A DNA stretch of 64,000 bases from a virus. Lineage: Duplodnaviria; Heunggongvirae; Uroviricota; Caudoviricetes. Every line of letters starts with the position of its first letter. Positions within the stretch are counted from its first letter, which is position 1. Shown piece after piece: positions 38,988 to 56,447 of the stretch. Position numbers and translations under genes: made by a program. The stretch lies in IMG/VR virus record IMGVR_UViG_3300009164_000055; one strand, written 5' to 3'. Under the pieces are notes generated by a model, which worked only from the letters and a program-made list of their open reading frames with translations, had not been told where the DNA came from and did no database searches.

Positions 38988-39209
38988 ATGTCTGAATCAA
39001 GTTCTGTATCAGTAAACTTTCCCTTCTTGGGAATTCTCACCCTGATCTTTATCACCCTTAAGCTCACTGGTCATATTGCATGGTCTTGGTGGTGGGTGCT
39101 TGCTCCTATGTGGATTCCTCTGGCAATCATTCTTGGTATTGGTATCATCGTTGTAATTATTGCTATGATTACTGGCGCTAACATCAATGTTAGGAAGCGT
39201 AAGCCATGA
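38988..39209 (+). CDS. small integral membrane protein (2 TM, Trp-rich)
   Basis: 73 aa after trimming to ATG with SD AAAGG. Confidence 0.4.
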   Translation: MSESSSVSVNFPFLGILTLIFITLKLTGHIAWSWWWVLAPMWIPLAIILGIGIIVVIIAMITGANINVRKRKP

Positions 39210-39418
39210 AGATTTCTATGAAATACGCTGCATTGCCTTTGGGTGCATTTGCAGTGTTCTTCCTAATACCCAAACTATTTCAGTTTCTGATCAATGCACA
39301 CTCAGATTTTGGAATTGTAATTGCTGTTACCGTTGTGTGCGTTATCGCCAGTATTGTTATTGGTGTAATTAACAAAATTATGAAATCCACCAAAAAGGAA
39401 AATGTTAATGAAGATTAA
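39206..39418 (+). CDS. small integral membrane protein (2 TM)
   Basis: 70 aa. Confidence 0.4.
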   Translation: MKISMKYAALPLGAFAVFFLIPKLFQFLINAHSDFGIVIAVTVVCVIASIVIGVINKIMKSTKKENVNED

Positions 39419-40235
39419 GAATATCGTTCTGGTTGCTCTTGCGGCTCTCTCACTTGCCGCATGTAGTCGTGTCGAACCGGGTCATGTTGGTATCAAGGTT
39501 GACCAGTATGGTTCATCTGCTGGTGTTGCCGCCGAATCTCTTCCAGTTGGTACATACTTTACTGGACCAGGCACAAGCATCTATGAATATCCAGTGTTCA
39601 CCAATACGTACACATGGACAAAGGATACTGAGGAAGGTTCTGCTTCAAATCAGGAATTTAGTTTCTCTGATAAGAATGGTATGACCGTCACCGCTGATGT
39701 TGCTGTTAGCTATCATGTTGATGCGACTAAGGCTCCTATTCTGTTCCAAAAGTATCGTACTGATATGGATGGTATTGTTGCTGGTCCTATGCGTGTTGCT
39801 ATTCGTGACGCTATCAACCAAGAAGCTAGTGGCATGACAGTAGAAGAAGTCTATGGTTCACGTAAGGCGGAACTTATCACTAAGTCGCTTCTACGTGTTC
39901 AAAAGTTCTTTGCTCCTTTTGGTCTGAATGTTGAACAGCTTTATTGGGCTTCACCAGTACGTGTCCCTGATCAAATCAAGGCACAGATCAATCAGAAGAT
40001 TGCTAACGAACAACAGGCTCTAGCCGCTCAGGCTAATGTTGCTACGGCAGAAGCTAATGCTCGTGCAAGAGTTGCTGAAGCAGAAGGTCGTGCTAAGGCT
40101 ACACAGATTGAAGCAAATGCTATCTCTTCAAATCCGCAGATTCTTACTCAGCGCATGATTGAAAAGTGGGATGGTCATTATCCTCAGTATGTTGGTGGTG
40201 GTATGCCTTTGCCTACCATTGCTATCAAGAAGTAA
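39402..40235 (+). CDS. SPFH/band-7 (prohibitin/HflC-like) lipoprotein
   Basis: signal peptide with lipobox LAAC; SPFH core; Ala/Gln-rich coiled C-terminus typical of band-7. Confidence 0.6.
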   Translation: MLMKIKNIVLVALAALSLAACSRVEPGHVGIKVDQYGSSAGVAAESLPVGTYFTGPGTSIYEYPVFTNTYTWTKDTEEGSASNQEFSFSDKNGMTVTADVAVSYHVDATKAPILFQKYRTDMDGIVAGPMRVAIRDAINQEASGMTVEEVYGSRKAELITKSLLRVQKFFAPFGLNVEQLYWASPVRVPDQIKAQINQKIANEQQALAAQANVATAEANARARVAEAEGRAKATQIEANAISSNPQILTQRMIEKWDGHYPQYVGGGMPLPTIAIKK

Positions 40236-40249
40236 AACCATACATAATG

Positions 40250-40282
40250 ATACCCTCAGCAGCAATGTCGGGGGTATTTTTT
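40250..40282 (+). terminator. putative terminator
   Basis: ATACCC...GGGTAT stem then TTTTTT. Confidence 0.4.
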
Positions 40283-40295
40283 ATAAAAATAATGC

Positions 40296-40324
40296 TTGAC
40301 TTATTTCTAAAAGTATGTTATAAT
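40296..40324 (+). promoter_or_regulatory. sigma70 consensus promoter TTGACT-N17-TATAAT (P8)
   Basis: exact hexamers. Confidence 0.5.
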
Positions 40325-40357
40325 GGTTTATAAGGTCAATTGAAGAGGAACTTAAAC

Positions 40358-40510
40358 ATGTATGCTTTTGATAAGTGGAGAGCCGAAAATTCCGAAACTC
40401 TTGATTCGGATTTGATATACGGAAAGTTTACTAGAGATCAATTACAGATTTTATTTTCATGGATGGAATCTGCTTATGAGGCTGGATTTGATGATGGCAG
40501 CGAAACATAA
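40358..40510 (+). CDS. small acidic hypothetical protein (50 aa) forming a stand-alone promoter-ORF-terminator unit
   Basis: SD GAAGAGGA upstream; flanked by P8 and terminator 40580..40604. Confidence 0.35.
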   Translation: MYAFDKWRAENSETLDSDLIYGKFTRDQLQILFSWMESAYEAGFDDGSET

Positions 40511-40579
40511 ACTCTGATAAGAGAGATTTATGATATTCTTATCAAGAAGTAAAAACTCACATCATAGCACAGAAAAAAG

Positions 40580-40604
40580 GGGGGAGCAATCCTCCCTTTT
40601 TTTT
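40580..40604 (+). terminator. putative terminator GGGAG-CAATC-CTCCC + T8
   Basis: short GC stem, 8 T. Confidence 0.4.
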
Positions 40605-40639
40605 GTTTTGATAAATAATACAAACCTAATGGAGAAACC

Positions 40640-41107
40640 ATGAAAACTTTTAAAGAATTTTTTGATGAGGCTACTAGAACTATTGATAGAGCATTAAAGC
40701 TTGGTGATCGATTAGCTGACAAATCAAAAAAAGATTGGGTAAAACAACCACCAAGCTATATGCAGAATAAAGCGTTGTCTTCACCATCACACAAACTGAT
40801 AAGCGGTTCTAAACCAGATTATACTGGAATGAGTGCATATAAAGCTAAGGCTGAAAGAGGCACAGACGTATTTGATCCAAAAATTAATGAACCAAATAAA
40901 ACACGAATTGATATAAAAAAATTAATCCCATCACAAGCCTTTACTGATTGGAATTCTAAAAAGGCAAAAGAAAAAATCAATGATGAAAATCCTATTTTAG
41001 TACTACATCATAACAATAAGCATTATGTTATAGATGGTCATCATAGAATTGTAGCAGCGAGACTTAAAGGTGATACTCACATAATCGCAAATATTCAGAA
41101 AGTATAA
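40640..41107 (+). CDS. ParB-like nuclease-domain protein with capsid-targeting-like N-terminus (MKTFKEFFDEA)
   Basis: C-terminal HYVIDGHHRIVAARLKG = ParB/Srx DGHHR motif. Confidence 0.55.
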   Translation: MKTFKEFFDEATRTIDRALKLGDRLADKSKKDWVKQPPSYMQNKALSSPSHKLISGSKPDYTGMSAYKAKAERGTDVFDPKINEPNKTRIDIKKLIPSQAFTDWNSKKAKEKINDENPILVLHHNNKHYVIDGHHRIVAARLKGDTHIIANIQKV

Positions 41108-41111
41108 TATA

Positions 41112-41981
41112 ATGCTGACCAATTTTAAAGATTTTATGGACAATGTTATTGTTGAAAATCTCCACCCAGAACTTCAGGACGTGGTTCGTACAGGTTCTAG
41201 TAGAAAAACTAAACAAAAGCAACTTGCTGATAAGATCAAAGACCTTACATCACGTGGTGAAAAAACAGGCATTGAAGGTAACATGCCTAAAGGTTCTTCT
41301 CGTGCTTACATGCAACATGCAGAGCCTGAGAATATCATTGTAGACAAGAAGATTGTACCTATGAAAGTTGGCACAAAGGTTGCTATTCGTTCCCCATTAG
41401 ACAGGTTTCACAATTCAAAAGAACATGATGGGCTTCACCTTGGTGCAATGCAAAATCATGCTGAAGGTGGGGATCATTGGGTGAACAGTAACTATCGCAC
41501 ATTGACAGACAAAGGTCATGGTCATTTCGAAACAAATGATGAAGGCATTTTTCCACCACTTGTTGACCATGATGATAAGGATCATCAGTGGACTAAAATA
41601 GGTCATGCACGTGATATTAAAGCTGGGGATTGGAAGAAGCTAACCAAAACAAAAGAGTATCCACAGGGTATAACTCATGATGATTTTACAAGCACTCTCC
41701 TACGTTTTCATAATCGTAATATTGGTAATCATTGGAAAAGTACTGATAATCACGAAAGACATATGGATCATATTGAACAACATCCGCTTGTACAAAAGTT
41801 TCTTGATTATCATGGCAATACAGGCAATTCCCCTGCTGATTATAGACAGCAAAAAAATCTTGGAGTATGGAAACACCCTGTTACTGGTCAAGAACATATT
41901 GTAGCACGTGATCATGGCTTCAGTAATGAAGTTGAACGTGCGTATAGAGATGCTAGAAAGAAACAATACGGCAACCGTTAA
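41112..41981 (+). CDS. His-rich hypothetical protein with CTS-like N-terminus (MLTNFKDFMDN)
   Basis: 289 aa. Confidence 0.4.
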   Translation: MLTNFKDFMDNVIVENLHPELQDVVRTGSSRKTKQKQLADKIKDLTSRGEKTGIEGNMPKGSSRAYMQHAEPENIIVDKKIVPMKVGTKVAIRSPLDRFHNSKEHDGLHLGAMQNHAEGGDHWVNSNYRTLTDKGHGHFETNDEGIFPPLVDHDDKDHQWTKIGHARDIKAGDWKKLTKTKEYPQGITHDDFTSTLLRFHNRNIGNHWKSTDNHERHMDHIEQHPLVQKFLDYHGNTGNSPADYRQQKNLGVWKHPVTGQEHIVARDHGFSNEVERAYRDARKKQYGNR

Positions 41982-42031
41982 TATTATAAATACATATGAA
42001 TATGTTCATATACCTAAAGGAATCCAAATAA

Positions 42032-43276
42032 ATGATTAATTTTAAATCTTTCATGACTGAAGCAACTGGTAGCACTGCACTTACAACACTTCCTGGTGTC
42101 CCAGAAAATCTTCACAACTTCCTTTTCCACCTTAGTGGTCCTTCTGATCCTACCAAGCTTCTCAACGAAGCTGCTGAGTATTATGATCAGATTGAAGAAG
42201 AGGAACGTAAAAGAGATGTTATGGATGTAAGTCAGCCAAAATTTAATCCTGATGAAGCTGCACATCCTTCAATGAATTTACCTAAAACACGTAATCTTAT
42301 TGATATGGGCCGTAGAGACATTCCAGCGGGAAACGTCCATAAGCGTATTGGTGAAGGCTTTCAATCAACATTCAAATCAATGGCAAATGAAACTCCAAAG
42401 GAATCAAGAGCAAAGCTTTCAGAATCACATAAGGTTCTAAGCGATTTTGCTAAGTCACGTGGTTTCAAGAGCAAGTTTCCCCTTTTGGGCGAAAACATGA
42501 AGACAGAAAAATCTTCTGGTGAGGGCGTTCTAACCAAAGGTCTAACACTAGCTCCACATACAACATCAGGTCTACATGGCTTTAACTCATGCGTTAAGGC
42601 ATCAACTGAATGTAAGAGGGGTTGCCTTGGTCTTACTGCTGGTGGCAATCGTCAGTACCCAGATGCTGCTCTATCAAGCAAGGTTATCAGAACACACTTC
42701 ATTGCAAAGCATCCTGAACATGCTGCACGTATCCTAGACAACGAAATCGGCAATCACGTCAAGAATGCCGCTAAGAAGGGCATGAAGCCTGGTGTGCGTC
42801 TAAACGTGACTTCAGATATCTCATGGGAAAAACATGCTCCACAACTATTTGATCGTCATCCAGATGCTCAATTCTATGACTATACCAAGCTCTCTAATCG
42901 TGTAGGCCATCCTGATCTACCAAAGAACTATCACCTTACCCTATCACACACAGGTACGGATCACGCTGAATCAAACGATAAGGCTGCTGTAGATACCTTG
43001 AAGAGAGGCCACGTGGTTGCGATGGTTTATCACCGTGGTAAGAAAATTCCACATCCAACACACGTTGAAGACGTTAAGACAGGCACTCGTTATCCAATCG
43101 TAAATGGCGATAAGGATGACAACACATTTGACCGTCATGAATCAATCGGCAGAACTGAAGGCAAGAAGGGACATGGAGTTGTGTCTGGTCTACAGCTTAA
43201 GGGCATTAAGAACGAAGAAGCTGGTAAATTTGCCAATCCAGTTGATAAAGATGGTATCATTCGTATCAATAAGTAA
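42032..43276 (+). CDS. hypothetical protein with CTS-like N-terminus (MINFKSFMTEA)
   Basis: 414 aa. Confidence 0.4.
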   Translation: MINFKSFMTEATGSTALTTLPGVPENLHNFLFHLSGPSDPTKLLNEAAEYYDQIEEEERKRDVMDVSQPKFNPDEAAHPSMNLPKTRNLIDMGRRDIPAGNVHKRIGEGFQSTFKSMANETPKESRAKLSESHKVLSDFAKSRGFKSKFPLLGENMKTEKSSGEGVLTKGLTLAPHTTSGLHGFNSCVKASTECKRGCLGLTAGGNRQYPDAALSSKVIRTHFIAKHPEHAARILDNEIGNHVKNAAKKGMKPGVRLNVTSDISWEKHAPQLFDRHPDAQFYDYTKLSNRVGHPDLPKNYHLTLSHTGTDHAESNDKAAVDTLKRGHVVAMVYHRGKKIPHPTHVEDVKTGTRYPIVNGDKDDNTFDRHESIGRTEGKKGHGVVSGLQLKGIKNEEAGKFANPVDKDGIIRINK

Positions 43277-43321
43277 GGTTCAATAATGATATATAATAAT
43301 AAAAGTAAAATATAAAAACTT

Positions 43322-43359
43322 ATGGGGGCGACATTTTTTAATGATGCCCCCATTTTTTT
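43322..43359 (+). terminator. rho-independent terminator ATGGGGGC...GCCCCCAT + T7
   Basis: 8-bp stem, 16-nt loop. Confidence 0.55.
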
Positions 43360-43361
43360 AC

Positions 43362-43390
43362 TTTACACGAGTTGCAACTGCCGTTATAAT
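43362..43390 (+). promoter_or_regulatory. promoter TTTACA-N17-TATAAT
   Basis: follows terminator, precedes 43438 gene. Confidence 0.45.
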
Positions 43391-43437
43391 CCGTTTGTCG
43401 GCATGAAATATTACTAACATATTACAGAAAGACTCAC

Positions 43438-43647
43438 ATGGAACAAGAAGACAAGAATAGAAACACATTCTATGCCATACCATGTAGAATGGATGACGAA
43501 GATGATGATGAATATATGTTCTTCCTTACATTTAATACAAGGAATGAAAAGGAAGCATTGAGATTAGCTAGTTGTGTTTGTGGTGAAGAGTCTAAACGTA
43601 GCTTAGTGGTTATTACAGATAATGGTGATTATTACGATTGCTATTGA
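43438..43647 (+). CDS. small acidic, Cys-containing hypothetical protein
   Basis: 69 aa. Confidence 0.35.
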   Translation: MEQEDKNRNTFYAIPCRMDDEDDDEYMFFLTFNTRNEKEALRLASCVCGEESKRSLVVITDNGDYYDCY

Positions 43648-43659
43648 CTGATACATCAG

Positions 43660-43854
43660 TCATTTTTCTTTTGGAAATATTTCAGGATATCTTTCATACA
43701 TACAGTAATATAATACAGTGCCTCTAAGCTTGCTATAAAATGTTGTCTGTTCTTTACCGTCCATCATACACTCATACTTAGATGGATGTACGTGAACAAT
43801 CCTTGCCTTTAAATCTCCATTATAAAAAATGTAAGCAATCATCCACCAAGTCAT
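43660..43854 (-). CDS. small hypothetical protein, last gene of minus-strand operon
   Basis: ATGA overlap with cyclase stop. Confidence 0.35.
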   Translation of the reverse strand: MTWWMIAYIFYNGDLKARIVHVHPSKYECMMDGKEQTTFYSKLRGTVLYYCMYERYPEIFPKEK

Positions 43855-45905
43855 TTACTGGTAGCACGGTAAACACCGTCCCAATTATTTGGTGCAGACT
43901 TTTGCTCATTCATGCGATCTATCATAGCGTTGTAATAGCCAGAAAGTTCACCTTTCCACACTGGTCCCATTTCATAAGCCATAGCTAAAGCTCTACCCCA
44001 TTCACCAGTACGATAATAATTTAAAAATTTATTATGAGCTTTTTCTGCTGCACTATCTTTCTTTTCAACCACAGTATAAATCTTTACTGGTTCTGTCTTG
44101 CCCTTAACAGCAATGAGGTCCAGTTCAATTATTTGGTATACATCCCTAACCAATTCGGCAGTTTCTGGCCCAATAATGAGTTTGACTCCATAAGGCTTGG
44201 ATTGACCTTCCAAACGAGAAGCCAGATTAACGCCATCCCCCAAGCAAGTATAGTCAAAACGCTGATCACTGCCCATATTACCAACAACCACAGTGGCAGT
44301 GTTAATACCAAGACCCATCCCAAAAGCGGGTACACCTTCTCTTGTAACTTCATCATTAAATTCCTTTAGTGAGTTTAGCATCTGGAATGCAGTCTTCACA
44401 GCATCTAGAGCATGTTGTTCATTGTTTAGTGGTGCATTCCAGAATGCCATCTGAGCGTCACCGATATACTTATCAAGCGTTCCTTTGTTCTCTAGGATTG
44501 CCTTTGTCATGGCAGTCATGTAGCGATTCATGATCTTAGTTAAACCTTGAACGTCTCTTCCATAGTGTTCTGAGATTGTTGTGAAGCCACGAACGTCTGT
44601 GAACATGATAGAGAGCTTTTGCTCTGTTCCACCTAGCTGTAGCAAGTCTGGTTGCTTTTGCAACTGTGCAACAAGGTCTGGTGACAGATATGTACCAAAC
44701 TGTTTCTTGATTTGTTGCTTCTGAAGGAATTCTGAGATATAATTGACGATGTTGACATGTAGGTATATAAGAATCATTGATCCAATAATGAAACTTGAAT
44801 CAAGTAGAATTTTATAATGTTCCATCGCATAGTATGGTGCATATACAGCCGCTGCTAATAATCCACCTACCCAAACGAATGAGAAGCGTACACGTGAAAG
44901 ACCAATCACCAAAATGCCAAGGGTTAGGAAACCAGCCCATTCCACTAAAGGAACCCATGACGGAATGGAAACGCTTGATCCGTCAAGAAGGGTCTGCAAT
45001 AATGAAGCTTGAATATACTGTGGAGACTTTGCTCCCACAGGAGTTGGAACAGGGTTCTGAATTCCTTCAGCAGTTACGCCAAGAATTACAAACTTATTTT
45101 GAAGAGATGGTAATGGGGAACCAACATCATACTCCTGAAATGCCTTGTTCCAATTTACAAACACTCGACTATAAGGGTCTGTTGAAATTGTATCGTACTG
45201 AGGGACACGAACAGCCTCAACACCTGTCTCATTTATCTTTGCTTGATATGATGTATCACCAGCCGCATTTCGAAGCATCTCAAGAGCAAAAGATGGGTAA
45301 TACTCATTATTTGACATTGCCAAAAGAGGAATACGACGAACAACGCCGTCAACTTCTGGAAGGGTTGATGTTACGCCAATCCCAGAAGCTTTATTTTGGA
45401 CCGTAGCTACGTTATCAAGAATGCATTTATATTGTGGTAGATAATCGGTGGCTTTGCCGTCACCAACAACTGCTACACCTGTACGCTTTGTGTTTGAGTT
45501 ATCTCTAGCGCACTTTTCACTAGCAACTTGAGATAAGACTACAGGATTAGATAAAAGTGATTGTTGTAGATCGGTGTCATGATTGAAGCGATCTGGCTCA
45601 GGATATAGTATGGTAGTACCGACTAAGCCAGCACCGCTGCTGTAAGCGTCATTAATAACCTTAGCATAAACATCTCTTGAGAATGGATACTGCCCATACT
45701 TTTCCAAAGTTTTTTCGGAAATATTGAGCAATACAACATCAGTACTAACAACTTGCTGCTCTGCTACCATCAGGTTATCGTAGAAATTCAAGCGGGTTGA
45801 TTCGATAAGGCGAGGATCAGCTACCTTCAATGTGATCAGAAGAGAAAAAGTAAGTAAAGCTAACCATGGGGACAATAATGTCTTTTTAATTTTGTTGACT
45901 AACAA
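43851..45905 (-). CDS. CHASE2 sensor domain - class III adenylate/guanylate cyclase
   Basis: N-terminal signal/TM + large periplasmic CHASE2-like region + TM cluster, then FTDVRGFTTISEH...GDGVNLASRLE class III cyclase catalytic motifs. Confidence 0.75.
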   Translation of the reverse strand: MLVNKIKKTLLSPWLALLTFSLLITLKVADPRLIESTRLNFYDNLMVAEQQVVSTDVVLLNISEKTLEKYGQYPFSRDVYAKVINDAYSSGAGLVGTTILYPEPDRFNHDTDLQQSLLSNPVVLSQVASEKCARDNSNTKRTGVAVVGDGKATDYLPQYKCILDNVATVQNKASGIGVTSTLPEVDGVVRRIPLLAMSNNEYYPSFALEMLRNAAGDTSYQAKINETGVEAVRVPQYDTISTDPYSRVFVNWNKAFQEYDVGSPLPSLQNKFVILGVTAEGIQNPVPTPVGAKSPQYIQASLLQTLLDGSSVSIPSWVPLVEWAGFLTLGILVIGLSRVRFSFVWVGGLLAAAVYAPYYAMEHYKILLDSSFIIGSMILIYLHVNIVNYISEFLQKQQIKKQFGTYLSPDLVAQLQKQPDLLQLGGTEQKLSIMFTDVRGFTTISEHYGRDVQGLTKIMNRYMTAMTKAILENKGTLDKYIGDAQMAFWNAPLNNEQHALDAVKTAFQMLNSLKEFNDEVTREGVPAFGMGLGINTATVVVGNMGSDQRFDYTCLGDGVNLASRLEGQSKPYGVKLIIGPETAELVRDVYQIIELDLIAVKGKTEPVKIYTVVEKKDSAAEKAHNKFLNYYRTGEWGRALAMAYEMGPVWKGELSGYYNAMIDRMNEQKSAPNNWDGVYRATSK

Positions 45906-46947
45906 TTATGCTACTCCCGCCATCGTTTAATTGAATAATATTTGTTTTTCCATTATCAGTGAATGATATATTTAGGTTTGATGTTTTTTCTGTAAGGATC
46001 GATGCCGTATTGTTTTGAATTCTAGTAAACTGGATAGTAACCTGTTCAACAAATGTGTATATCTTTGTTGTGCTATCAAGACCAAAATTTGTACCAATCA
46101 ATCGAATATTATCTTTAGTAACTTCTCCACCTTCAGAATATGTTAAATCATCCTCAAAAAAGTTTACATCAAGTCTATTGATACTAAGATCATTGTCGTT
46201 GATATCATTCTTTTCAAGTTCATCGTTCTTTAGGAAGTCAATATCTAGTTCTGATAGATCAAGAATATTGGCTCTTTTATCAACTATATCCTGTTGTTTA
46301 ACCACATCTGGTGGAGACACGATCAACATATTGTCGATCATGCTTAGGTCTAGGTTGAGAATGACAGGTTTTGTTGGTGGTGTATCAGCCGTCAGAACAA
46401 TAGTTGATTGAAAGGCTTTATCTAAAATAACAGTCCCTGCACTATTCGACACAGTAATCTGCCCAACATGACCGTTTTCTTCTGGTAGAAGAATAAACAG
46501 GCTCTTACCCATTTCATCTACGGTTGTTGTGAAATCTGTTCCTCTAACCGCTATGGTAGCAGTAGGAGTTTTAAGGTTGATACCTTTCTTACCCATGGAA
46601 CCAGTTACGAACCTAGCAGTACCTGAAGCAAATCGAAGATTCATCTTTCCTTTACTAGCATCGCCATCATAAACAAAATCATCGATCACAAGCTTTGATT
46701 GTTCTGTGAGTTTAACCTTAGTGTTGTCAACAAATGTTATTTCGATGCGACCATTACCAGTACGCACGTTATCCATTTTTTGCACAGGTAAGCGAGGCTG
46801 TGTAGGAATTTTTTGTGTTTTCCTAACAACCTCGCTTGGTCCTCTTAGCTCAGTAACACTGCCAATATTAGCAGTTGCCGCTATTGCATTGTGTGATGTT
46901 AATAATACCACCAGTAGCAGTAGTATTAAGTTTAATCGTATCCACAT
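45886..46947 (-). CDS. FecR-domain periplasmic protein
   Basis: signal peptide; FecR-like beta domain (GSVTELRGPSEV..., MGKSLFILLPEENGHVG); start overlaps curlin gene by ~80 nt so start codon uncertain. Confidence 0.5.
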   Translation of the reverse strand: MWIRLNLILLLLVVLLTSHNAIAATANIGSVTELRGPSEVVRKTQKIPTQPRLPVQKMDNVRTGNGRIEITFVDNTKVKLTEQSKLVIDDFVYDGDASKGKMNLRFASGTARFVTGSMGKKGINLKTPTATIAVRGTDFTTTVDEMGKSLFILLPEENGHVGQITVSNSAGTVILDKAFQSTIVLTADTPPTKPVILNLDLSMIDNMLIVSPPDVVKQQDIVDKRANILDLSELDIDFLKNDELEKNDINDNDLSINRLDVNFFEDDLTYSEGGEVTKDNIRLIGTNFGLDSTTKIYTFVEQVTIQFTRIQNNTASILTEKTSNLNISFTDNGKTNIIQLNDGGSSIIVSQQN

Positions 46948-47572
46948 TCAATGTACTCTTCTGATCGATATTAATAGTATTCAATGAACCTAGTACGTTC
47001 ATATCGATGTTCTTACCAGCATAACCAGTTTGAGTAGTTGTAATGGTATTTTGATCACCAGTTACGTTTATTGTATTGGTAACATCATCTGTATTGATAT
47101 TTGCCAGTAATGTATTATAGTCTCCTGAGATTACATAATTCAGAAGAGCATTTGTTGCTGATGAATAATCACCATGATTAAATGTTGTTTTATTGTTATC
47201 ACCAGTAATTGTCATATTTTGGGTTGTACCTGCAACAGAAGCACTACTGCCTGTGTTGAAGATATTTTCGTTAGAATTACCAGTAATATTAAGGTTATAA
47301 TTCACACCAGATGCATTTGTTATACGTCCAGTAAGAATGTTGTTTGAACCAGTTTGAGTAATAGTGATATCTTGTGAGTTTCCTTCAAGATTAAATCTAT
47401 TATTTTCAGAACCGATCTTATTATCTTGGCCTGTTTGCGTTACTGTTATCTTACTTGTTTCGCCTACTTGCTCAATATAGATTGCGTTTGGATTTGCAAT
47501 CGCTGTGGATGAAATCATGACCATCAAGAGTGATAACATCTTGATTTTCTTTAACATATCTTTTAACTCCAA
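46868..47572 (-). CDS. curlin-repeat (CsgA/CsgB-like) secreted protein
   Basis: signal peptide then imperfect repeats TVTQTGQDNKIGS / ITITQTGSNNILTG / MTITGDNNKTT / INVTGDQNTITTTQTGYAGKN resembling S-x5-Q-x-G-x-G-N curlin repeats. Confidence 0.5.
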   Translation of the reverse strand: MELKDMLKKIKMLSLLMVMISSTAIANPNAIYIEQVGETSKITVTQTGQDNKIGSENNRFNLEGNSQDITITQTGSNNILTGRITNASGVNYNLNITGNSNENIFNTGSSASVAGTTQNMTITGDNNKTTFNHGDYSSATNALLNYVISGDYNTLLANINTDDVTNTINVTGDQNTITTTQTGYAGKNIDMNVLGSLNTINIDQKSTLNVDTIKLNTTATGGIINITQCNSGNC

Positions 47573-48330
47573 TATCCCTTAATTCTGCCTTGTTTGATTA
47601 GTTCGACTACTGCCGCTTCAATTGTCATCTTAACCGCAATCGTGTTTGCTTCATTTTCGGTTATACCTACTTCTGTTTCAACAAGTTTGGTTCCTACATC
47701 AATAAATTTAAATAATGTAAAGTCTGTACCAGTTGAAAGGATTGTTTTTGAAACCTGTACGTTCATAATGACTTCGCCAGTGTTTGTTGAAACCGCCCTT
47801 AGTGCTACTGTTACTTGGTCTTTGCGATATTTTGTGCTTGAACCGATACCAAGATATCTGGCTCCAGCACCACCAGTAACAATATTGGTATCGTAACCAA
47901 TAATGCCACCTTGAATCATTATTCCTGCAAAGACTAAAGGTTCAAGCTTATTAGCGCCTTCACCTTGGTATTCTTCACGAGTTTGACGAACAATTTGACG
48001 TTCTTTAGTAAGATCGTCTATTCTTTGACGTTCGACAACTCTAAACCACTTTCCACGTCCAGCATTTTTCAATGCATCAATTAATAAACTTGTTCCGCCT
48101 TGAGTTACGGAAGTTGAAAATGTCGCTACACCATCTTTATCTTTTCTTTGACCTGTAAGATCAGGAAAGTCATACACAGCTACTACTGCTGGCATTTGTG
48201 GTGGTCTAATATCTAACAGTGGCTTATATGCCACACTATCAACAACAGGTAAATTTCTGTTGAAGTCATGTAGAGCAGGGGTTGCACAACCACCTAGCAA
48301 TAGTAATAATGCTAAACCTATGCTTTTCAT
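47563..48330 (-). CDS. csgG: curli production assembly/transport lipoprotein CsgG
   Basis: lipobox LLGGC; long blocks align with E. coli CsgG (VAVYDFPDLTGQ..., FSTSV...LLIDALK, MIQGGIIGYDTNIVTGGAGARYLGIGSSTKY...SKTILS...FKFID). Confidence 0.85.
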   Translation of the reverse strand: MKSIGLALLLLLGGCATPALHDFNRNLPVVDSVAYKPLLDIRPPQMPAVVAVYDFPDLTGQRKDKDGVATFSTSVTQGGTSLLIDALKNAGRGKWFRVVERQRIDDLTKERQIVRQTREEYQGEGANKLEPLVFAGIMIQGGIIGYDTNIVTGGAGARYLGIGSSTKYRKDQVTVALRAVSTNTGEVIMNVQVSKTILSTGTDFTLFKFIDVGTKLVETEVGITENEANTIAVKMTIEAAVVELIKQGRIKGYWS

Positions 48331-48854
48331 TAGAATTTAAATGACCCTGCTGTTGGAATGGTGATTGAAGTTGATGTACCATCTGGCTGTGTTATTGTCA
48401 GTGTTATACCATTTAAGTCTTTTTGAAATGCAACGGTATTTCCATCAAGCTCAAAGGTTCCTGAATCCTGTGCGTTTGGACCGAAAAGACTATCTGTCAG
48501 TTGTTTGGCTAGTTGAGAATATATACGAGACTGCAAATTGGTCATGAATTTGTTCATGATTGAATTTTGCTCAGCTTGAACTGCTGCTTTCAAATCTGAT
48601 TCAATTTTGTCTTGAATTGTTTTACGTCTGGTTGCTTCTTGATTTTCAATTGTTAACCAATGTGCAGAAGTGCCAACTCCACTAAATGAAGGGCTTTTGA
48701 ATTGCTGAACAATTTCTGTGGAATGTGCAGGACTACTTAGAAACAGTAGGCTTGCTAGTATCAGGCTCTTTCTTAGCAACTTCTTCTTCCTTTTTCTTTT
48801 TATTATTTTCAGAAGAAAGATCGAATTCAAGTTTGAAGATTTTGATGATTTCAA
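48330..48854 (-). CDS. csgF: CsgF-like curli assembly protein
   Basis: signal peptide then EIVQQFKSPSFSG (cf. CsgF TMTFQFRNPNFGG) and C-terminal ITLTITQPDGTSTSITIP (cf. LNVTDRKTGQTSTIQVSG). Confidence 0.55.
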   Translation of the reverse strand: MKSSKSSNLNSIFLLKIIKRKRKKKLLRKSLILASLLFLSSPAHSTEIVQQFKSPSFSGVGTSAHWLTIENQEATRRKTIQDKIESDLKAAVQAEQNSIMNKFMTNLQSRIYSQLAKQLTDSLFGPNAQDSGTFELDGNTVAFQKDLNGITLTITQPDGTSTSITIPTAGSFKF

Positions 48855-49114
48855 TTTTTAGGCTTATAATCACCGTGATCTTCCTTTATCTGTAGTACTA
48901 CATTCACCTTCTGGTTCAACCGAATGAGGTCATTGTCCAACATGCGAACACGATCAATCAGTGCGATTAAAATAACATTGGTTTCGCCAATCAACGGCAT
49001 TAATTTATCTGTAACAAACTTATAGATGAAGAATACGAAATATCCCATACCGACTGCGGCAACAATTGGGAATCCATATTGCTTCACAAATTGAGCAATT
49101 AGATCGGGTGACAT
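48851..49114 (-). CDS. small single-TM protein (paralog of next gene)
   Basis: shares D.I....GFPI.AA...G.F.....I...L.....I..L..RV....D.IR pattern with 49114..49401. Confidence 0.4.
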   Translation of the reverse strand: MSPDLIAQFVKQYGFPIVAAVGMGYFVFFIYKFVTDKLMPLIGETNVILIALIDRVRMLDNDLIRLNQKVNVVLQIKEDHGDYKPKN

Positions 49115-49401
49115 TAGTCTCTCCTAGCATCGTTCTTCCCGTCTGCTCGTGCAATTCTTTCAAGATCAGGCTTAAGACCTAATGCAGAACTTACTACGGC
49201 ATCAACACGGATAATATCATGGTTCATTGTTTTGACTCGATTATCGAGTCCCATAATAATACCCTGCATTCCTTTGATGGCTTTGAGGACGCTTTCTAGG
49301 ATGTAGTTAATAACAAAGTACACGAAGACACCACCCAACAACGCTGCTGCGATGGGGAACCCTACGTCACCAATCAGTTTGAATATAACATCGTATCCCA
49401 T
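49114..49401 (-). CDS. small single-TM protein, first gene of minus-strand operon
   Basis: ORF-track TTG start (49554) trimmed to ATG giving paralog-length product. Confidence 0.35.
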   Translation of the reverse strand: MGYDVIFKLIGDVGFPIAAALLGGVFVYFVINYILESVLKAIKGMQGIIMGLDNRVKTMNHDIIRVDAVVSSALGLKPDLERIARADGKNDARRD

Positions 49402-49673
49402 GCTTATATTTATGCAAATGGCATCTTTGTATGTAGCATACGAAAAAAAAAAAGTTGACAATCCATTTTTTTCTGCTATTTGCGTCTCAACTTGTATAAA
49501 TAAATGTAAGAAACTATTTACTAAGAAAGACTTAAAGTGCAACTCACCTATCAACCCATTATGAAAGATATGAAACCAGCCAGTTCATTCGAACATGGCC
49601 GCTTTGCGTCTGTCAATAATGGTGCGTGGACAGATGAGATGTAACTGAAGTACGACATAAGTATAACTTGTCA

Positions 49674-49756: not shown

Positions 49757-49832
49757 GCCGCTATAGCTCAGTTGGTAGAGCGTCTGCCTTGTAAGCAGAA
49801 TGTCTGGGGTTCGATTCCTCATGGCGGCACCA
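49757..49832 (+). tRNA. tRNA-Thr (anticodon TGT)
   Basis: cloverleaf by eye; GCTCAGTTGGTAGAGC D-arm, GGTTCGATTCC T-arm, CCA encoded. Confidence 0.7.
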
Positions 49833-49839
49833 GAATTTC

Positions 49840-49915
49840 GGGGACTTAGCTCAGTTGGGAGAGCGATAGCTTTGCAAGCTATAGGTCAAGGGTTCGATCC
49901 CCTTAGTCTCCACCA
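49840..49915 (+). tRNA. tRNA-Ala (TGC)
   Basis: acceptor GGGGACT/AGTCTCC incl. G3-U70, anticodon loop TTTGCAA. Confidence 0.7.
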
Positions 49916-49985
49916 AGTTAGGGGTTGACGTTTAATAAGCACGGATGTAATGTAATTGAATGTTGGCTTCGACAAAATAGATTAT

Positions 49986-50064
49986 AGCGGGATAGAGGAG
50001 TATGGCCGTCCTCGCCAGTTTCATAAGCTGGAAATCGTCGGTTCAAATCCGGCTCCCGCAACCA
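49986..50064 (+). tRNA. initiator tRNA-fMet (CAT)
   Basis: 3' half ATCGTCGGTTCAAATCCGGCTCCCGCAACCA nearly identical to E. coli tRNA-fMet; 1-72 mismatch (A·A). Confidence 0.65.
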
Positions 50065-50103
50065 ATCTATGCTCTTTGACATTGTTAGAAACGTAATATT
50101 TTA

Positions 50104-50180
50104 CGGGGATTAGCGCAGTCCGGTAGCGCACCTGCTTTGGGAGCAGGGGGTCGTAGGTTCGAATCCTACATTCCCGACCA
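50104..50180 (+). tRNA. tRNA-Pro (TGG)
   Basis: anticodon loop TTTGGGA, T-arm GTAGGTTCGAATCCTAC. Confidence 0.7.
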
Positions 50181-50310
50181 TTAAGTTTTCTTGTTTTTCC
50201 TTTAAAAAACAAGTGGTGGATCGCAGAATTAGATGCTAATTCGGCCCCAAATGTGGTGTATGCCAAAGACCATTGAAAGAGATGGGCAGCGAATGGGAGC
50301 TTCGCAGTAT

Positions 50311-50386
50311 GGTGGCTGTAGCTCAGAGGCAGAGCGTTGGGTTGTGAACCCAAATGTCGGGATTTCGAAACTCCTCAGTCACCCCA
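50311..50386 (+). tRNA. tRNA-His (GTG) with encoded G-1
   Basis: G-1 opposite C73, anticodon loop TTGTGAA; T-arm GGGATTTCGAAACTCCT imperfect. Confidence 0.55.
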
Positions 50387-50387
50387 T

Positions 50388-50465
50388 GTCGGTGTAGCTT
50401 AGCCCGGTCTAAAGCAACGGTCTCCAAAACCGTGATCGTGAGTTCGAATCTCACCACCTTCGCCA
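50388..50465 (+). tRNA. tRNA-Trp (CCA)
   Basis: anticodon arm ACGGTCTCCAAAACCGT identical to E. coli tRNA-Trp; acceptor stem shows two mismatches as read. Confidence 0.5.
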
Positions 50466-50487
50466 TTTTTTAAACAATAGGTGATTT

Positions 50488-50925
50488 ATGATTGAAGAAG
50501 CAAAACAGGCAATCTTGGCATCAAGTCAAAGTTCTTCTGTTTACATCGGTGCTGACAGCATCCGTTACAAAAAAGACGGTAAGTGGTATGCTAAGTATTC
50601 GACTGTGATTGTTCTTCACATAGATTCTAAGCGGGGCTGCAAACTATTCCATAACAGCGTTGATTTGCCAGACTATGGCAACTTAAAACAACGCTTGCTA
50701 ACAGAAGTTGGATATGCTATTGAAGCAGCAATCGAGATTATTGATGTGGTTGGTAAACGTCATTTGGAAGTTCATATTGACGTTAATCCAAATCCAAAGC
50801 ATAAATCTTCTGTTGCAATCAAGGAAGCCTTGGGTTATGTTAAGGGTTCACTTGGTATAGATGCTATTCCAAAGCCAAATGGATGGGCAGCTACTCATGC
50901 TGCTGACCATATGGCAAGACACTAA
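50488..50925 (+). CDS. RNase H-like fold protein (YkuK/DUF458-like) embedded in tRNA array
   Basis: VYIGADS...KYSTVIVLH pattern reminiscent of DUF458; 145 aa. Confidence 0.35.
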   Translation: MIEEAKQAILASSQSSSVYIGADSIRYKKDGKWYAKYSTVIVLHIDSKRGCKLFHNSVDLPDYGNLKQRLLTEVGYAIEAAIEIIDVVGKRHLEVHIDVNPNPKHKSSVAIKEALGYVKGSLGIDAIPKPNGWAATHAADHMARH

Positions 50926-50930
50926 ATAAT

Positions 50931-51005
50931 GCCTGATTAGCTCAGCGGTAGAGCAAATCCTTTACACGGATAAGGTCGGCGGTTCAATCCCGTCATCAGG
51001 TACCA
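50931..51005 (+). tRNA. tRNA-Val (TAC)
   Basis: close to E. coli tRNA-Val1 3' half (GGTCGGCGGTTCAATCCCGTCATCA). Confidence 0.7.
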
Positions 51006-51013
51006 AAGTTCAT

Positions 51014-51088
51014 TCCCTGATAGCTCAATGGTAGAGCTTTCGGCTGTTAACCGGACGGTTGTAGGTTCGAGTCCTACTCAGGGAGCCA
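51014..51088 (+). tRNA. tRNA-Asn (GTT)
   Basis: anticodon loop CTGTTAA; acceptor TCCCTGA/TCAGGGA. Confidence 0.7.
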
Positions 51089-51444
51089 GAGTTTAGTGAG
51101 TGTTATAGTTAGACGGCACTGTGTGTAAACTAATCGATTGTTGTAACACAGTAAAAGATGACGGTGCAAGTACGCAACATAGATAAACCATCTGCTCTCT
51201 ATCAATTTATAACGTACCCTAAGAACGCAAGTTCAATAGCAGAGGCGCTGATAAATTCTGCATAATGCTCCATTGTTGGGTTGGAGGCTCACTAATTCAA
51301 GTTTACTAGGCGGGTGCAGTACACCGTAAGTCCTCAGAAGTTGGGGAATGGCAAAGTGCTCAACGGCTATACAACTACTATTGTATAGCAACTGTAGTAG
51401 CAGTGTTGATGTGGTGCAAGTCCATACGTTCCCCTCATTTTAAT

Positions 51445-51520
51445 GGATCGTTAGCTCAATCGGGAGAGCACCGCACTGTCCATGCGGAGGTAAGGGGATC
51501 GAAACCCCTACGATTCGCCA
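51445..51520 (+). tRNA. tRNA-Asp (GTC), non-canonical T-loop ATCGAAA
   Basis: anticodon loop CTGTCCA; T-arm AGGGG-ATCGAAA-CCCCT (A at position 54). Confidence 0.55.
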
Positions 51521-51525
51521 TCAAT

Positions 51526-51600
51526 GGCCCTGTCGTCTAGTGGCTAGGACGCTAGGTTTTCAACCTAGAGAAGCGGGATCGAAACCCGTCAGGGCTACCA
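51526..51600 (+). tRNA. tRNA-Glu (TTC), 3-bp D-stem, T-loop ATCGAAA
   Basis: anticodon loop TTTTCAA. Confidence 0.55.
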
Positions 51601-51622
51601 TTTTTTAAGGTTGACAAACGAT

Positions 51623-51793
51623 ATGGATAACGATAATAAAGAAGCCGTATTGCTTAGTTTAAAGGAACGTAAAACTGCATGTTGGGCAATGGCTAAAGTG
51701 TTTCTCTTGAATGAAGATGCACACGGCGTTCACGACATGGGAGTTGAAATTCAAGCTTTAGACAGAGCAATCAAAGAGATTGAAAGTCTTTAA
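51623..51793 (+). CDS. doubtful small ORF (56 aa) without RBS, overlapping a TTGACA-N17-TAATAA promoter-like site
   Basis: ORF track 51611..51793 trimmed to ATG; may be non-coding. Confidence 0.2.
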   Translation: MDNDNKEAVLLSLKERKTACWAMAKVFLLNEDAHGVHDMGVEIQALDRAIKEIESL

Positions 51794-51800
51794 AGTTTAG

Positions 51801-51883
51801 GGTGACTAAAGTCGATAGTTTCGGCAATCGGTCTGTAAAACCGATCTTTCGGGGAGTGGAGCGTAACCACAGTCACCCACCAA
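51801..51883 (+). pseudogene. tRNA-Tyr-like degenerate element (acceptor GGTGACT/AGTCACC, anticodon arm with CTGTAAA loop, no T-arm)
   Basis: anticodon loop identical to E. coli tRNA-Tyr; 3' tail ...AGTCACCCACCA; lacks recognisable T-loop. Confidence 0.3.
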
Positions 51884-51910
51884 GTTTTTTGAGATAGTGA
51901 AAAATAGTTG

Positions 51911-51939
51911 TTGATATAAAGACAACGAATCACTATATT
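51911..51939 (+). promoter_or_regulatory. early-type promoter TTGATA-N17(…CGAATCAC)-TATATT in front of the large ORF-free region
   Basis: shares CGAATCAC spacer element with P1-P6 family. Confidence 0.4.
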
Positions 51940-51945
51940 GAGTTC

Positions 51946-53090
51946 AACAAAGAGATAAATGGCGGTGTAGCGTCAATAGGGTAAGGTCGGGTAACTGATC
52001 CCAAAGCAAGTTCTCCTACAGAACTGCGCCAGTGATGGTCCATCTATGCAAGCCTGAACAAACCCGAAAGGGTCCGTCAGTAGAATGGCGGTAGGCATTA
52101 AGTGCTGGTCGAAGGTCCGAAAGGATAGGTTACAGAGCCACATCGGTGAGTAGCTAAATGGGGTGGTACCCATACCAAGTCAAACCAACAGTACGATTGC
52201 TGAATGTTAACAGGTAGTTATTGAGTCTGACCCTGCAAGGAAAGGCAAGATAGCAGTCACAAAGTTGAAGGGATGACCGGAGACTTGAAGGATCGTTGAG
52301 TAGTTCGCAAGACGAAAGACAGGAGGTGTGCAGTATTTTGTATCCCAAAAGGATATGAAGCAGCAGTAGCAGCACATCTTGGTAGGTTTCTTACTTTGCA
52401 CAAACTTTAGGTGTCTGATCGCAAATCAAACAAAAAAAAGCAAAGTCTGCTACGGTACTATGTGAAAGGTGCTTAATACCACACTCGAAAGGGAATGTGG
52501 TTCATGGATACTCGCAAGGTTGAAGTGATTGTTCGGATTGAAAACGTAAGAGCTTAGCGGCTCCTAACTGCTCGTAAGGTAGACGGAAGATTGAGGGATG
52601 AATAGCATAGTATGACAGGTCAAACGCCAGACCTTAAAAAAGGCAGCACTGAGAGATACTAGATGACTGTAAAAAGCTCTAGTGGATAACGAGTTAACAA
52701 TCCTCGCAAGGGACTTGGTACGGCTCAAAGGCTCTCATATGAAGCAGTAATCTCATGCTTCTCAAAGACTTTTTAGATGAACACATTCTATAAGACTTAC
52801 GGCCTTCGGGTACGCTTGAGTGTGTTCTTCTAAAAAGTTTTGATGAACACACCAAACAGGACGCTGGCTCGTTGAAGTATTTGGGGGAAGTAGCTGCCCT
52901 TGGGTATGGAGAGATGAGTGTGTTCTTCTAAACTTTTTAAATCTACTCTGCTGGGGGTAGCAGTGTATGGACGCATACACTATGTGAGGATAGGGCCATC
53001 TTACCCTCACTGACATAACCCTAGCAATGGCTTAGGACAGGAAGCACCTGACTCCGAAATTCGCTCATGAGCAGAGTAGATTTAAATAGT
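51946..53090 (+). ncRNA. candidate large structured non-coding RNA (~1.15 kb, GNRA-tetraloop-rich, GC-enriched; GOLLD/ROOL-class or novel)
   Basis: no + strand ORF >=60 aa across 1.3 kb in an otherwise tightly packed genome; many C(n)GAAAG(n) / CGCAAG hairpins; 17-bp long-range inverted repeat 52936-52952 / 53069-53085; flanked by tRNAs. Confidence 0.45.
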
Positions 53091-53094
53091 TTAT

Positions 53095-53169
53095 GCCAGT
53101 ATAGCTCAGCGGTAGAGTACGGGACTCATATTCCCTTGGTCGCTAGTTCGATCCTAGCTACTGGTACCA
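53095..53169 (+). tRNA. tRNA with CAT anticodon, tRNA-Ile2 (lysidine) type more likely than elongator Met
   Basis: ACTCATATTCCCTTGGTCGCTAGTTCGATCC resembles E. coli tRNA-Ile2 (TTGGTC variable loop). Confidence 0.55.
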
Positions 53170-53220
53170 ATTTGTGGATTATTTTACAACTATATACAAT
53201 GTCTTTATATAAAGGAAATT

Positions 53221-53784: not shown

Positions 53785-53789
53785 ATATT

Positions 53790-53864
53790 GCACCATTAGC
53801 TCAGTAGTAGAGCATTCGACTGATAATCGAAAGGTGACAGGGGCGGTACCTGTATGGTGTACCA
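53790..53864 (+). tRNA. tRNA-Ile (GAT), unusual T-loop GGCGGTA
   Basis: anticodon arm TTCGA-CTGATAA-TCGAA; T-arm ACAGG-GGCGGTA-CCTGT. Confidence 0.5.
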
Positions 53865-53908
53865 AAAATTACTAATACTTCTAGTAAATGGAAGTTTCTA
53901 TAATTTGT

Positions 53909-53985
53909 GGCCGTGTAGTCCAACTGGCAGAGACACTAGTTTTAGGTACTAGGTGTTGGGAGTTCGAATCTCTCCACGGCTACCA
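53909..53985 (+). tRNA. class-I tRNA with anticodon TAG (Leu-decoding anticodon but short 5-nt variable loop)
   Basis: anticodon arm CTAGT-TTTAGGT-ACTAG; variable loop GTGTT; canonical T-arm. Confidence 0.45.
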
Positions 53986-53990
53986 TTTAT

Positions 53991-54067: not shown

Positions 54068-54108
54068 ATCCTTATAAATAGTAAAAACTATTTCGTTGAG
54101 GACAATAC

Positions 54109-54813: not shown

Positions 54814-54818
54814 AGTTT

Positions 54819-56443: not shown

Positions 56444-56447
56444 GTGT

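Follow-up and report, generated by a model that had tools for sequence, protein, structure and literature searches.

Seven genes in the viral DNA analysed here encode proteins that begin with a short N-terminal tag resembling the one that directs the internal proteins (IPs) of phage T4 into the capsid. The DNA is a stretch of 64,000 nucleotides from a virus of the class Caudoviricetes (IMG/VR record IMGVR_UViG_3300009164_000055) and is referred to below, at its full length, as the window. The seven N-termini are read as T4-type capsid targeting sequences (CTSs), and the tagged enzymes as proteins that are packaged into the head, trimmed and ejected with the DNA. This reading is given a probability of about three in four. 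Because a T4 head-loading tag is found on seven genes, the phage probably carries a set of enzymes in its capsid that is injected with its DNA. The mechanism of the T4 CTS itself is already known. The novelty lies in finding it in an uncultured lineage far removed from T4, with a larger and in part conserved set of enzyme-like cargo, and in seeing this tag on cyanophage virion proteins that are non-structural and had lacked an explanation.

Injected proteins act ahead of phage gene expression and so constitute the earliest counter to host defences. The lack of any relationship between their mature parts makes them difficult to detect. If the tag proves reliable beyond the T-evens, it could be read from sequence which proteins are injected by uncultured T4-like phages, a group that ranks with the most abundant of lake and ocean viruses. 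A reliable tag would also settle whether the kinases, cytidylyltransferases and S-adenosylmethionine (SAM) hydrolase reported from cyanophage virions are true cargo, and it would provide new candidate anti-defence or takeover enzymes.

The window has a G+C content of about 38-40% and is coding almost wholly on the + strand. Its T4-type genes include a gp61-type primase, a class I ribonucleotide reductase, an RnlA-type RNA ligase and a denV-like glycosylase. The primase is matched by 2,413 phage records and is at most about 45% identical to the primases of cyanomyophages. No near-identity DNA match to window positions 39000-44000 was found among isolated phages, and genes identical to window genes are present in freshwater metagenomes; the contigs retrieved by exact matches to window proteins measure at most 19 kb and add no sequence past the window. 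Contigs of sibling phages in IMG/VR, with a helicase about 90% identical in protein sequence, encode gp43 polymerase, UvsX, gp41, gp32, gp59 and RnlB, together with gp5/gp25/gp6/gp7/gp8-like baseplate genes and tail-fibre genes; these sibling assignments were made mostly by N-terminal sequence recognition and gene size. To judge by this gene content, the window represents part of the genome of a distant, uncultured freshwater myophage of the T4 superfamily.

The N-terminal tag and the T4 capsid targeting sequence

All seven open reading frames (ORFs; each named here by its first position) were confirmed on the + strand with the starts and the conserved decapeptide-like N-termini that had originally been predicted (Table 1). 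They share the pattern M-(K/x)-x-[F/L]-x-x-F-[I/M/F]-x-E. Five can be read directly: ORF 40640 (MKTFKEFFDEA), ORF 42032 (MINFKSFMTEA), ORF 54109 (MKPFKSFIEES), ORF 57067 (MKTFSAFISEE) and ORF 5081 (MKTLKDFISEC), where the longest ORF opens at a TTG at 5051. The other two are brought into register by setting the first Met aside. ORF 41112 (MLTNFKDFMDN) then reads (M)LTNFKDFMDN, and ORF 57699 (MMKSLSQFIAES), which has a TTG at 57696, reads (M)MKSLSQFIAE↓S, where the arrow marks the predicted cleavage site.

In T4, both IPII and IPIII begin with MKTYQEFIAE↓A (checked on NC_000866). The original prediction had ascribed MKTYQEFIAE to IPI as well; in the T4 record IPI begins instead with MKTFKEFTSTTTPVSTITE↓A and thus opens with MKTFKEF. 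Residues 1-7 of ORF 40640 are identical to those of IPI, and the FIAE of ORF 57699 is identical to residues 7-10 of IPII and IPIII. Two further T4 sites of the same protease type are the gp23 maturation site, GSFLTE↓AE, and the N-terminus of Alt, MELITE↓L.

The first 10 residues of T4 IPIII have been shown to be enough for packaging (review of Black's work, PMC9026906). Genetic work has assigned residues 4 and 7 of the T4 CTS to targeting and residues 8 and 10 to processing, and Asp at position 10 blocks cleavage and leaves targeting intact (PMC9026906). In the window, position 4 is F or L and position 7 is F in all seven ORFs, to be compared with Y4/F7 in T4 and F4/F7 in IPI. I-x-E stands at positions 8-10 in four of the seven (ORFs 5081, 54109, 57067 and 57699). 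The family of ORF 41112 has an invariant I-V-E at residues 13-15, which is its likely cleavage site. All of the tags include an x-E site of the gp21 type, broadly in line with the (L/I)-x-E rule. Read as T4-type CTSs, the N-termini make the proteins candidates for packaging and injection. Scans of the tagged proteins against Pfam, PHROGs and NCBIfam returned no internal-protein family, and similarity to the T4 IPs is confined to the tag.

All seven tags lie at the extreme N-terminus, within residues 1-11 of their ORFs. A regular expression built from them matches only these seven in a six-frame translation of the window. The strict core [FLY]xxF[ILMFV]xE gives six N-terminal matches among 114 called ORFs, against a mean of 0.08 and a maximum of one in composition-preserving shuffles. 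The sole other match to the strict core in the called ORFs starts at residue 7 of ORF 7698 (MANYKSLASFVRE) and is therefore also near an N-terminus. Membership of this possible eighth protein is doubtful, because its orthologue in the sibling contig L014 has ...LASYARN and no Glu. When the sibling contigs are added to the window (318 ORFs, 58,741 aa), 18 N-terminal and 8 internal matches to the motif are counted. The motif was also sought on clearly non-virion genes, an occurrence that the original prediction had named as telling against it; none was found in the window, in a 204-kb relative (L080) or in the cyanophage S-CREM2.

Table 1. Tagged genes, promoter-like boxes and other genes discussed in the text. 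Positions refer to the window unless a contig is named; the arrow marks a predicted cleavage site.
Feature	Position	Strand	Details
CTS-tagged, 155 aa	40640..41107	+	Predicted propeptide MKTFKEFFDE↓A (40640-40669); C-terminal part ParB/Srx-like
CTS-tagged, 289 aa, His-rich	41112..41981	+	Predicted 15-residue propeptide MLTNFKDFMDNVIVE↓N (41112-41156); predicted protein-kinase-like fold
CTS-tagged, 414 aa	42032..43276	+	Predicted propeptide MINFKSFMTE↓A (42032-42061), variable linker, GP88 domain (PF17338)
CTS-tagged, small basic protein, 97 aa	5081..5374	+	Predicted propeptide MKTLKDFISE↓C (5081-5110); DUF6321, Pfam 2.6e-14
CTS-tagged, 234 aa	54109..54813	+	Predicted propeptide MKPFKSFIEE↓S (54109-54138); Pol-beta-type nucleotidyltransferase-like; inside tRNA cluster
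CTS-tagged, 210 aa	57067..57699	+	Predicted propeptide MKTFSAFISE↓E (57067-57096); very weak methyltransferase similarity, E = 0.02-0.09
CTS-tagged, 128 aa	57699..58085	+	Predicted propeptide MMKSLSQFIAE↓S (57699-57731); ParB/Srx-like, DGHHR; overlaps stop codon of 57067
Possible eighth member, 201 aa	7698..8303	+	MANYKSLASFVRE↓ILEKK, core shifted 3 residues; acidic, charged, no family
T4-type late-promoter-like box TATAAATA	41985..41992	+	Upstream of 42032
Similar late-promoter boxes	40611-40617, 54073-54080, 57039-57045, 3717-3724	+	
Very basic 82-85-aa proteins	L171 1087-1344, L172 984-1232		MKTFSEFMEE or MKTFKDFLDE; directly upstream of gp21, in the place of T4 gp67/gp68
Further tagged genes	L006 13640-16551		Sibling contig, downstream of its match to the window end; MKTFKQFREE (232-aa His-rich protein); ADP-ribosyltransferases MKTFKQFIESE and MMQSFKKFLEES
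RNase H-like gene	50488-50925		PF04308; within tRNA region
TET-associated glycosyltransferase (TAGT), then metallophosphoesterase, then GT4 glycosyltransferase	59197-61930		PF20691 2.9e-46
Ferritin/Dps-like gene	7256-7696		PF00210 4.9e-18; late-promoter-like ATAAATA box ahead; between candidate virion-protein genes
544-aa ORF, strongly charged	5583-7217		DUF5824 and DUF5872; nearest TATAAATA at 5379, ~200 nt upstream
849-aa ORF, K/E/H-rich, strongly charged	8336-10885		ATAAATA box 16 nt upstream

Conservation of the tag, late-promoter-like boxes and the virion link

The tag is conserved at the amino-acid level across families whose members share only 46-55% identity. The family of ORF 41112 has more than 300 metagenomic members, and a tblastn search found no homologue of it in isolated phages. 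In homologues that are as little as 53% identical, E15 never varies within its (I/L/V)-x-E context, and F5 and F8 hardly vary. Because of this invariance of E15, the propeptide of ORF 41112 is probably 15 residues long. In the GP88 family of ORF 42032 (420 members), M-x-[NS]-F-K-x-[FY]-[IL]-x-E is kept and the next ~90 residues are hypervariable, with substitutions and indels; one sub-branch has a different N-terminus, yet one that ends in L-L-x-E. Judged by these alignments, selection acts on the tag in both of these large families.

The tag is also portable. The alignable part of the GP88 homologues in mycobacteriophages and pelagiphages begins only at about residue 106-171. The cyanophage homologues of ORF 54109 are without the decapeptide, and their start aligns at about residue 11 of the window protein. 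One GP88 homologue, P0228, is a fusion in which an N-terminal domain of ~200 aa, starting with MKRFKQWLLE, is followed by the internal tag-like sequence NSLKEFKQWLEEA and then by the GP88 module. It resembles two fused tagged genes, and the internal site is possibly still cleavable.

Among the 18 ORF N-termini inspected in the 204-kb relative, the tag is present on the orthologues of 41112 and 42032 only. Just downstream of this tagged pair (L080 12424-17098) are an NMNAT-Nudix fusion, NAMPT, a radical SAM gene and a 2OG-Fe(II) oxygenase, all untagged; the NMNAT-Nudix fusion and NAMPT constitute an NAD salvage set. In the sibling contigs, orthologues of 57067 keep the tag (MKTFSAFISEN, MKTLSIFISES and MKTFNEFISED), and tagged accessory genes vary from contig to contig. 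The sibling L014 has an extra tagged gene for a ParB_N protein (1.1e-7, which passes the threshold). The two tagged ADP-ribosyltransferases of the sibling L006 match ADPrib_exo_Tox at 1e-11 and 4.5e-12 and represent Alt-like cargo. The tagged genes of L006 are followed by a dTDP-rhamnose biosynthesis cluster.

T4-type late-promoter boxes of the form (N)ATAAATA (TATAAATA or NATAAATA) are found 28-46 nt upstream of 40640, 42032, 54109 and 57067. The distances are 29 nt for GATAAATA ahead of 40640, 35 nt for TATAAATA ahead of 54109 and 28 nt for AATAAATA ahead of 57067. The remaining tagged genes (41112, 5081 and 57699) directly follow box-bearing genes, with 5081 being the last gene of the run 3752, 4171, 5081 after the TATAAATA box at 3717. 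ATAAATA occurs within 80 nt upstream of four of the seven tagged genes, compared with 5 of the 79 other + strand ORFs (Fisher p = 0.0018).

Gene order gives a further parallel. The T4 record has denV, ipII, ipIII and e, then the tRNA cluster and then ipI. The window echoes this arrangement, with a denV-like gene (3133) near 5081 and with 54109, 57067 and 57699 among tRNA genes. The protease gp21 is a core gene of T4-related phages (PMC9026906), and a cyanophage homologue has been detected in virions of S-SM1 (PMC3037559); another is annotated in S-CREM2. On these grounds gp21 is presumed to be present in the window's lineage, where the gene was not found because the sibling contigs never reached the head module. 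When prokaryotic genome assemblies were searched with an alignment of gp21, 49 T4-like loci emerged, none of them demonstrably of the window's own lineage. A DUF6321 homologue of ORF 5081 that begins with MKTYNDFITE is encoded on the T4-like contig L170, which also has a gp21-type protease gene. The two loci L171 and L172 (Table 1) are marine T4-like contigs that had been binned into metagenome-assembled genomes, and their small proteins are candidate tagged core or internal proteins.

An independent link to virions comes from the T4-like cyanophage S-CREM2. In its CsCl-purified virions, 52 of 221 ORFs were detected (PMC10665884). The S-CREM2 genome was reassembled from its record and then scanned for the N-terminal motif. 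The strict motif is carried by four ORFs, namely ORF6 (MKDFDSFLEE, annotated as 'SAM hydrolase'), ORF13 (MKDLHSFLTE), ORF136 (MQTFSMFFSE) and ORF154 (MKNFSSFLTE, annotated as a cytidylyltransferase). Two more tags were recognised by inspection, in the kinase ORF14, which has a GTG start (KRFDAFLTEE), and in ORF12, where ..RFASFMAE↓A lies at residues 19-25 from the annotated start. All six tagged proteins are in the virion proteome (Fisher p = 1.3e-4; 0.0028 for the four strict matches alone), and the neighbouring replication and repair genes lack the motif. S-CREM2 ORF156, which is 38% identical to window ORF 54109, was also detected in virions (6 peptides); its shorter N-terminus, MKKLISE↓L, resembles that of Alt. 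The authors of the proteome study draw no connection from such proteins to a targeting signal (PMC10665884), and in the literature searched no paper connects the CTS with cyanophages.

Putative cargo of the tag and neighbouring genes

The cargo falls into two classes. The first is a conserved syntenic pair, the kinase-like 41112 and the GP88 protein 42032, which is present in hundreds of related uncultured phages. In the 41112 family, D243, N249 and D267-H268-G269 are invariant or nearly so and were mapped to the catalytic loop and the DFG motif by inspection only; ORF 41112 has no sequence-profile match to any solved structure. The GP88 domain of 42032 has invariant C187, C194 and C198 with the spacing CX6CX3C, which is not the canonical CX3CX2C of radical-SAM-like or Gp37/Gp68-like Fe-S enzymes, and several radical-SAM enzymes are among its weak fold matches.

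The second class is a variable accessory set of ParB/Srx-like, nucleotidyltransferase (NTase)-like, methyltransferase-like and DUF6321 proteins, joined in sibling contigs by the Alt-like ADP-ribosyltransferases. The payload labels of the original prediction hold only in part and were given with too much confidence. A DGHHR motif is found in ORFs 40640 and 57699 for ParB, and G-G...D-x-D in ORF 54109 for the NTase fold. The profiles behind these labels are weak. ORF 40640 matches Pfam ParBc_2 at 3.8e-4, with 21 bits and thus below the cut-off of 23.6, and the PHROG ParB-like matches of ORFs 40640 and 57699 have values of 1e-3 and 2.5e-3. ORF 54109 matches NTP_transf_2 at E = 0.039 only; it also matches phrog_36119 at 6e-54, and its homologues in T4-like cyanophages are 38-40% identical. 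The methyltransferase match of ORF 57067 is very weak (E = 0.02-0.09), and this protein has no sequence similarity to solved structures. Comparison of the cargo proteins and their family profiles with solved structures by sequence gave nothing useful. The enzyme assignments are weakly supported leads, not identifications. One homologue carries the name 'ParB-like nuclease family protein' from its source. For the 40640 family, a set of 5.8 billion proteins yielded just 5 homologues, with the tag intact in all except P0245; the family is restricted to the lineage and is absent at the same position in the 204-kb relative.

The probable setting of this cargo is a phage with modified DNA. The genes at window 59197-61930 point to glycosylated cytosine hypermodification, and because the phage carries a TAGT gene its DNA is probably hypermodified. 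Hypermodified DNA is the setting in which the T4 IPs counter modification-dependent restriction enzymes. The window holds the GT4 gene in two pieces (60959-61357 and 61367-61930); a metagenomic contig with an identical helicase has it intact, with 323 aa.

Several other genes stand near the tagged ones. Eighteen tRNA genes, including two tRNA-Met and two tRNA-Ser, lie at window 49757-63750 with protein genes interspersed. The large ORFs 5583 and 8336 share a region with the tagged gene 5081 and are possible additional head or injected proteins relying on a different signal. ORF 8336 has no match in any library, and tblastn against isolated phages found none. An opposite-strand (-), host-like block at 43851-49554 encodes a CHASE2-sensor adenylate/guanylate cyclase (684 aa), a FecR-like protein, CsgG, CsgF and small ORFs. 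CsgG and CsgF are curli secretion components. The block is an unusual auxiliary module for a phage, and the GC skew switches sign there.

Interpretation and comparison with known systems

The original proposal, that the N-termini are T4-type CTSs and mark candidates for packaging and injection, is supported by every indirect test that was available: the phage is T4-like, the determinant positions are kept, the tag is selected, late-promoter boxes are present and the S-CREM2 virions provide a link. We infer core binding, gp21 cleavage, packaging, injection and a host role of the cargo in the following form. Transcription of the tagged genes would start late in infection, at promoters of the T4 late type. 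In each product the first ~10 residues, with hydrophobic residues at positions 4 and 7, would bind the scaffolding core of the assembling prohead, so that the protein becomes enclosed. A gp21-type prohead protease would then cut off the tag after the Glu of (I/L/M/F)-x-E, which is predicted to be residue 10 in five of the proteins, residue 11 in 57699 and residue 15 in the 41112 family. The mature enzyme would remain in the DNA-filled head and leave with the DNA at infection. A putative anti-defence or takeover role rests on the T4 precedents and on the probable hypermodification of the phage DNA. In T4, Alt modifies host RNA polymerase, and IPI-III each block one GmrSD variant (PMC12373910).

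Several points weigh against this account. The P3 residue of the cleavage site is non-canonical in two tags (F-D-E in 40640 and M-T-E in 42032), and ORF 41112 has M-D-N at positions 8-10, with Asn and not Glu at position 10. The late-promoter consensus of the lineage was assumed to be that of T4. None of the head genes gp20-gp24 was found by tblastn with T4 and S-CREM2 queries in ~100 kb of sibling sequence, which did not reach the head module. The domain assignments of the cargo fall mostly below curated thresholds. Finally, the authors of the S-CREM2 study noted that abundant non-structural proteins may co-purify with virions, and they left contamination open (PMC10665884).

The strongest alternative, itself unlikely, accepts packaging by the CTS and places the function of the proteins inside the head, as prohead-core or DNA-organising proteins (like T4 gp67, gp68 and part of IPIII) or as enzymes acting on the packaged DNA, and not as injected effectors. 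The small, very basic tagged proteins at the gp67/gp68 position beside gp21 in other T4-like contigs fit such a role, as does the small and basic ORF 5081. The conservation of the 41112/42032 pair in more than 300 phages, without fast evolution, also fits housekeeping better than an arms race. Most of the cargo nevertheless looks enzymatic (kinase-like, NTase-like and ParB/Srx proteins, and the ADP-ribosyltransferases of the siblings), T4 Alt and IPI-III are precedents for proteins that are injected and act on the host (PMC9026906; PMC12373910), and the 40640 family is lineage-restricted in the manner of the T4 ip genes.

It is very improbable that the shared N-terminus is a gene-start cassette, that is, an A/T-rich initiation context with AAA as the second codon, or a recombination segment that shuffles accessory genes. 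All Lys codons in the tags are indeed AAA, 59 of 83 same-residue codon pairs are identical where about half would be expected, and the genes are accessory ones that differ between sibling contigs. Against this, the tags differ synonymously among themselves (TTT/TTC, ACT/ACG, TCA/TCT/AGT, ATT/ATC and CTA/TTA), about 100 other ORFs of the window lack the motif even though highly expressed types are among them, and the conserved positions are those that are genetically important in T4. Given these synonymous differences and the modest size of the codon-identity excess, the constraint is mainly on the peptide. Two observations led to the rejection of a translation context or recombination cassette as the principal cause: it is the amino acids that are conserved, in families of low overall identity, and the motif tracks virion presence in S-CREM2.

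Equally improbable is a convergent or chance likeness to the T4 CTS, with the tag being a generic amphipathic N-terminal helix put to another use (such as membrane association, oligomerisation or a degradation signal), since the shortness of the motif and the short, low-confidence helix over residues 4-12 in two AlphaFold2 models are outweighed by the lack of a hydrophobic stretch typical of secretion or membrane signals, the seven-residue identity with IPI and the FIAE identity with IPII/III in a phage that is itself T4-like, the protease-type x-E site in every tag, and the S-CREM2 virion link. A secretion or membrane signal was ruled out by composition.

A broader version of the CTS reading is put forward tentatively, at somewhat less than even odds. 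The T4 CTS would be no special trait of T-even coliphages; it would be an ancient sorting code used across the T4 superfamily, in cyanophages and in large uncultured freshwater lineages, to load a sizeable enzyme toolkit. This toolkit would comprise kinase-like proteins, cysteine-cluster GP88 proteins, ParB/Srx NTPase-nucleases, nucleotidyltransferases and ADP-ribosyltransferases. On this view, the injected proteome of any uncultured T4-like phage would be predictable from a simple N-terminal pattern, the puzzling 'regulatory' proteins of cyanophage virion proteomes would be explained, and the kinase-like and GP88 pair would be a class of injected host-takeover enzymes not recognised before.

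The closest known system is that of the T4 IPs. As in T4, a CTS of ~10 residues with the same determinant positions and an x-E protease site precedes mature parts that are unrelated behind the common tag, gene content varies between close relatives (PMC3012670; PMC12373910), and the genes cluster near denV and tRNA genes. The mature parts of the window proteins, however, have no detectable similarity to T4 IPs. The T4 IPs are small (95-193 aa as encoded) and inhibit GmrSD-type restriction enzymes, whereas the window cargo is mostly 130-410 aa and enzyme-looking, and two of its families are conserved across hundreds of phages and are not hypervariable. The phage of the window also belongs to a very distant uncultured T4-like lineage, as its primase, ~45% identical to those of cyanophages, illustrates. 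T4 Alt is similar in being a head-carried enzyme that is trimmed by gp21 after I-x-E near the N-terminus, injected and active on host proteins, and the two tagged ADPrib_exo_Tox proteins of sibling contigs provide a parallel. Alt differs in having a propeptide of 6-7 residues and not an IP-type decapeptide; the tagged ADP-ribosyltransferases, for their part, lie in sibling contigs past the window end, and in BLASTP they resemble Alt only marginally (E = 0.006 to 0.02).

Virion-associated 'regulatory' proteins have been reported in the T4-like cyanophages S-CREM2, S-CRM01, S-SZBM1 and S-SCSM1 (kinases, cytidylyltransferase/NMNAT and SAM hydrolase), and as well in the non-T4 cyanomyovirus S-CBWM1 and in S-TIM5. 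Like the window cargo, these are non-structural enzymes, found in purified virions, and those of S-CREM2 share the N-terminal tag of the window. ORF156 is homologous to 54109, and kinase-like cargo seemingly occurs in the window too. In contrast, the kinase-like family of the window has no homologue in isolated phages, and its GP88 family has no tagged homologue there.

More remote parallels are the ejection or inner-body proteins of the giant phages phiKZ and SPN3US and the Dar proteins of phage P1, all of which enter the prohead as cargo and reach the host. In the giant phages a gp21-related protease trims after Glu (PMC9026906), and the packaged P1 protein DdrB has a ParB-like domain (PMC5512222). 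These systems rely on other targeting determinants, on cleavage at S/A/G-x-E and on large or polyvalent proteins, whereas the window has a short T4-type decapeptide on single-domain proteins.

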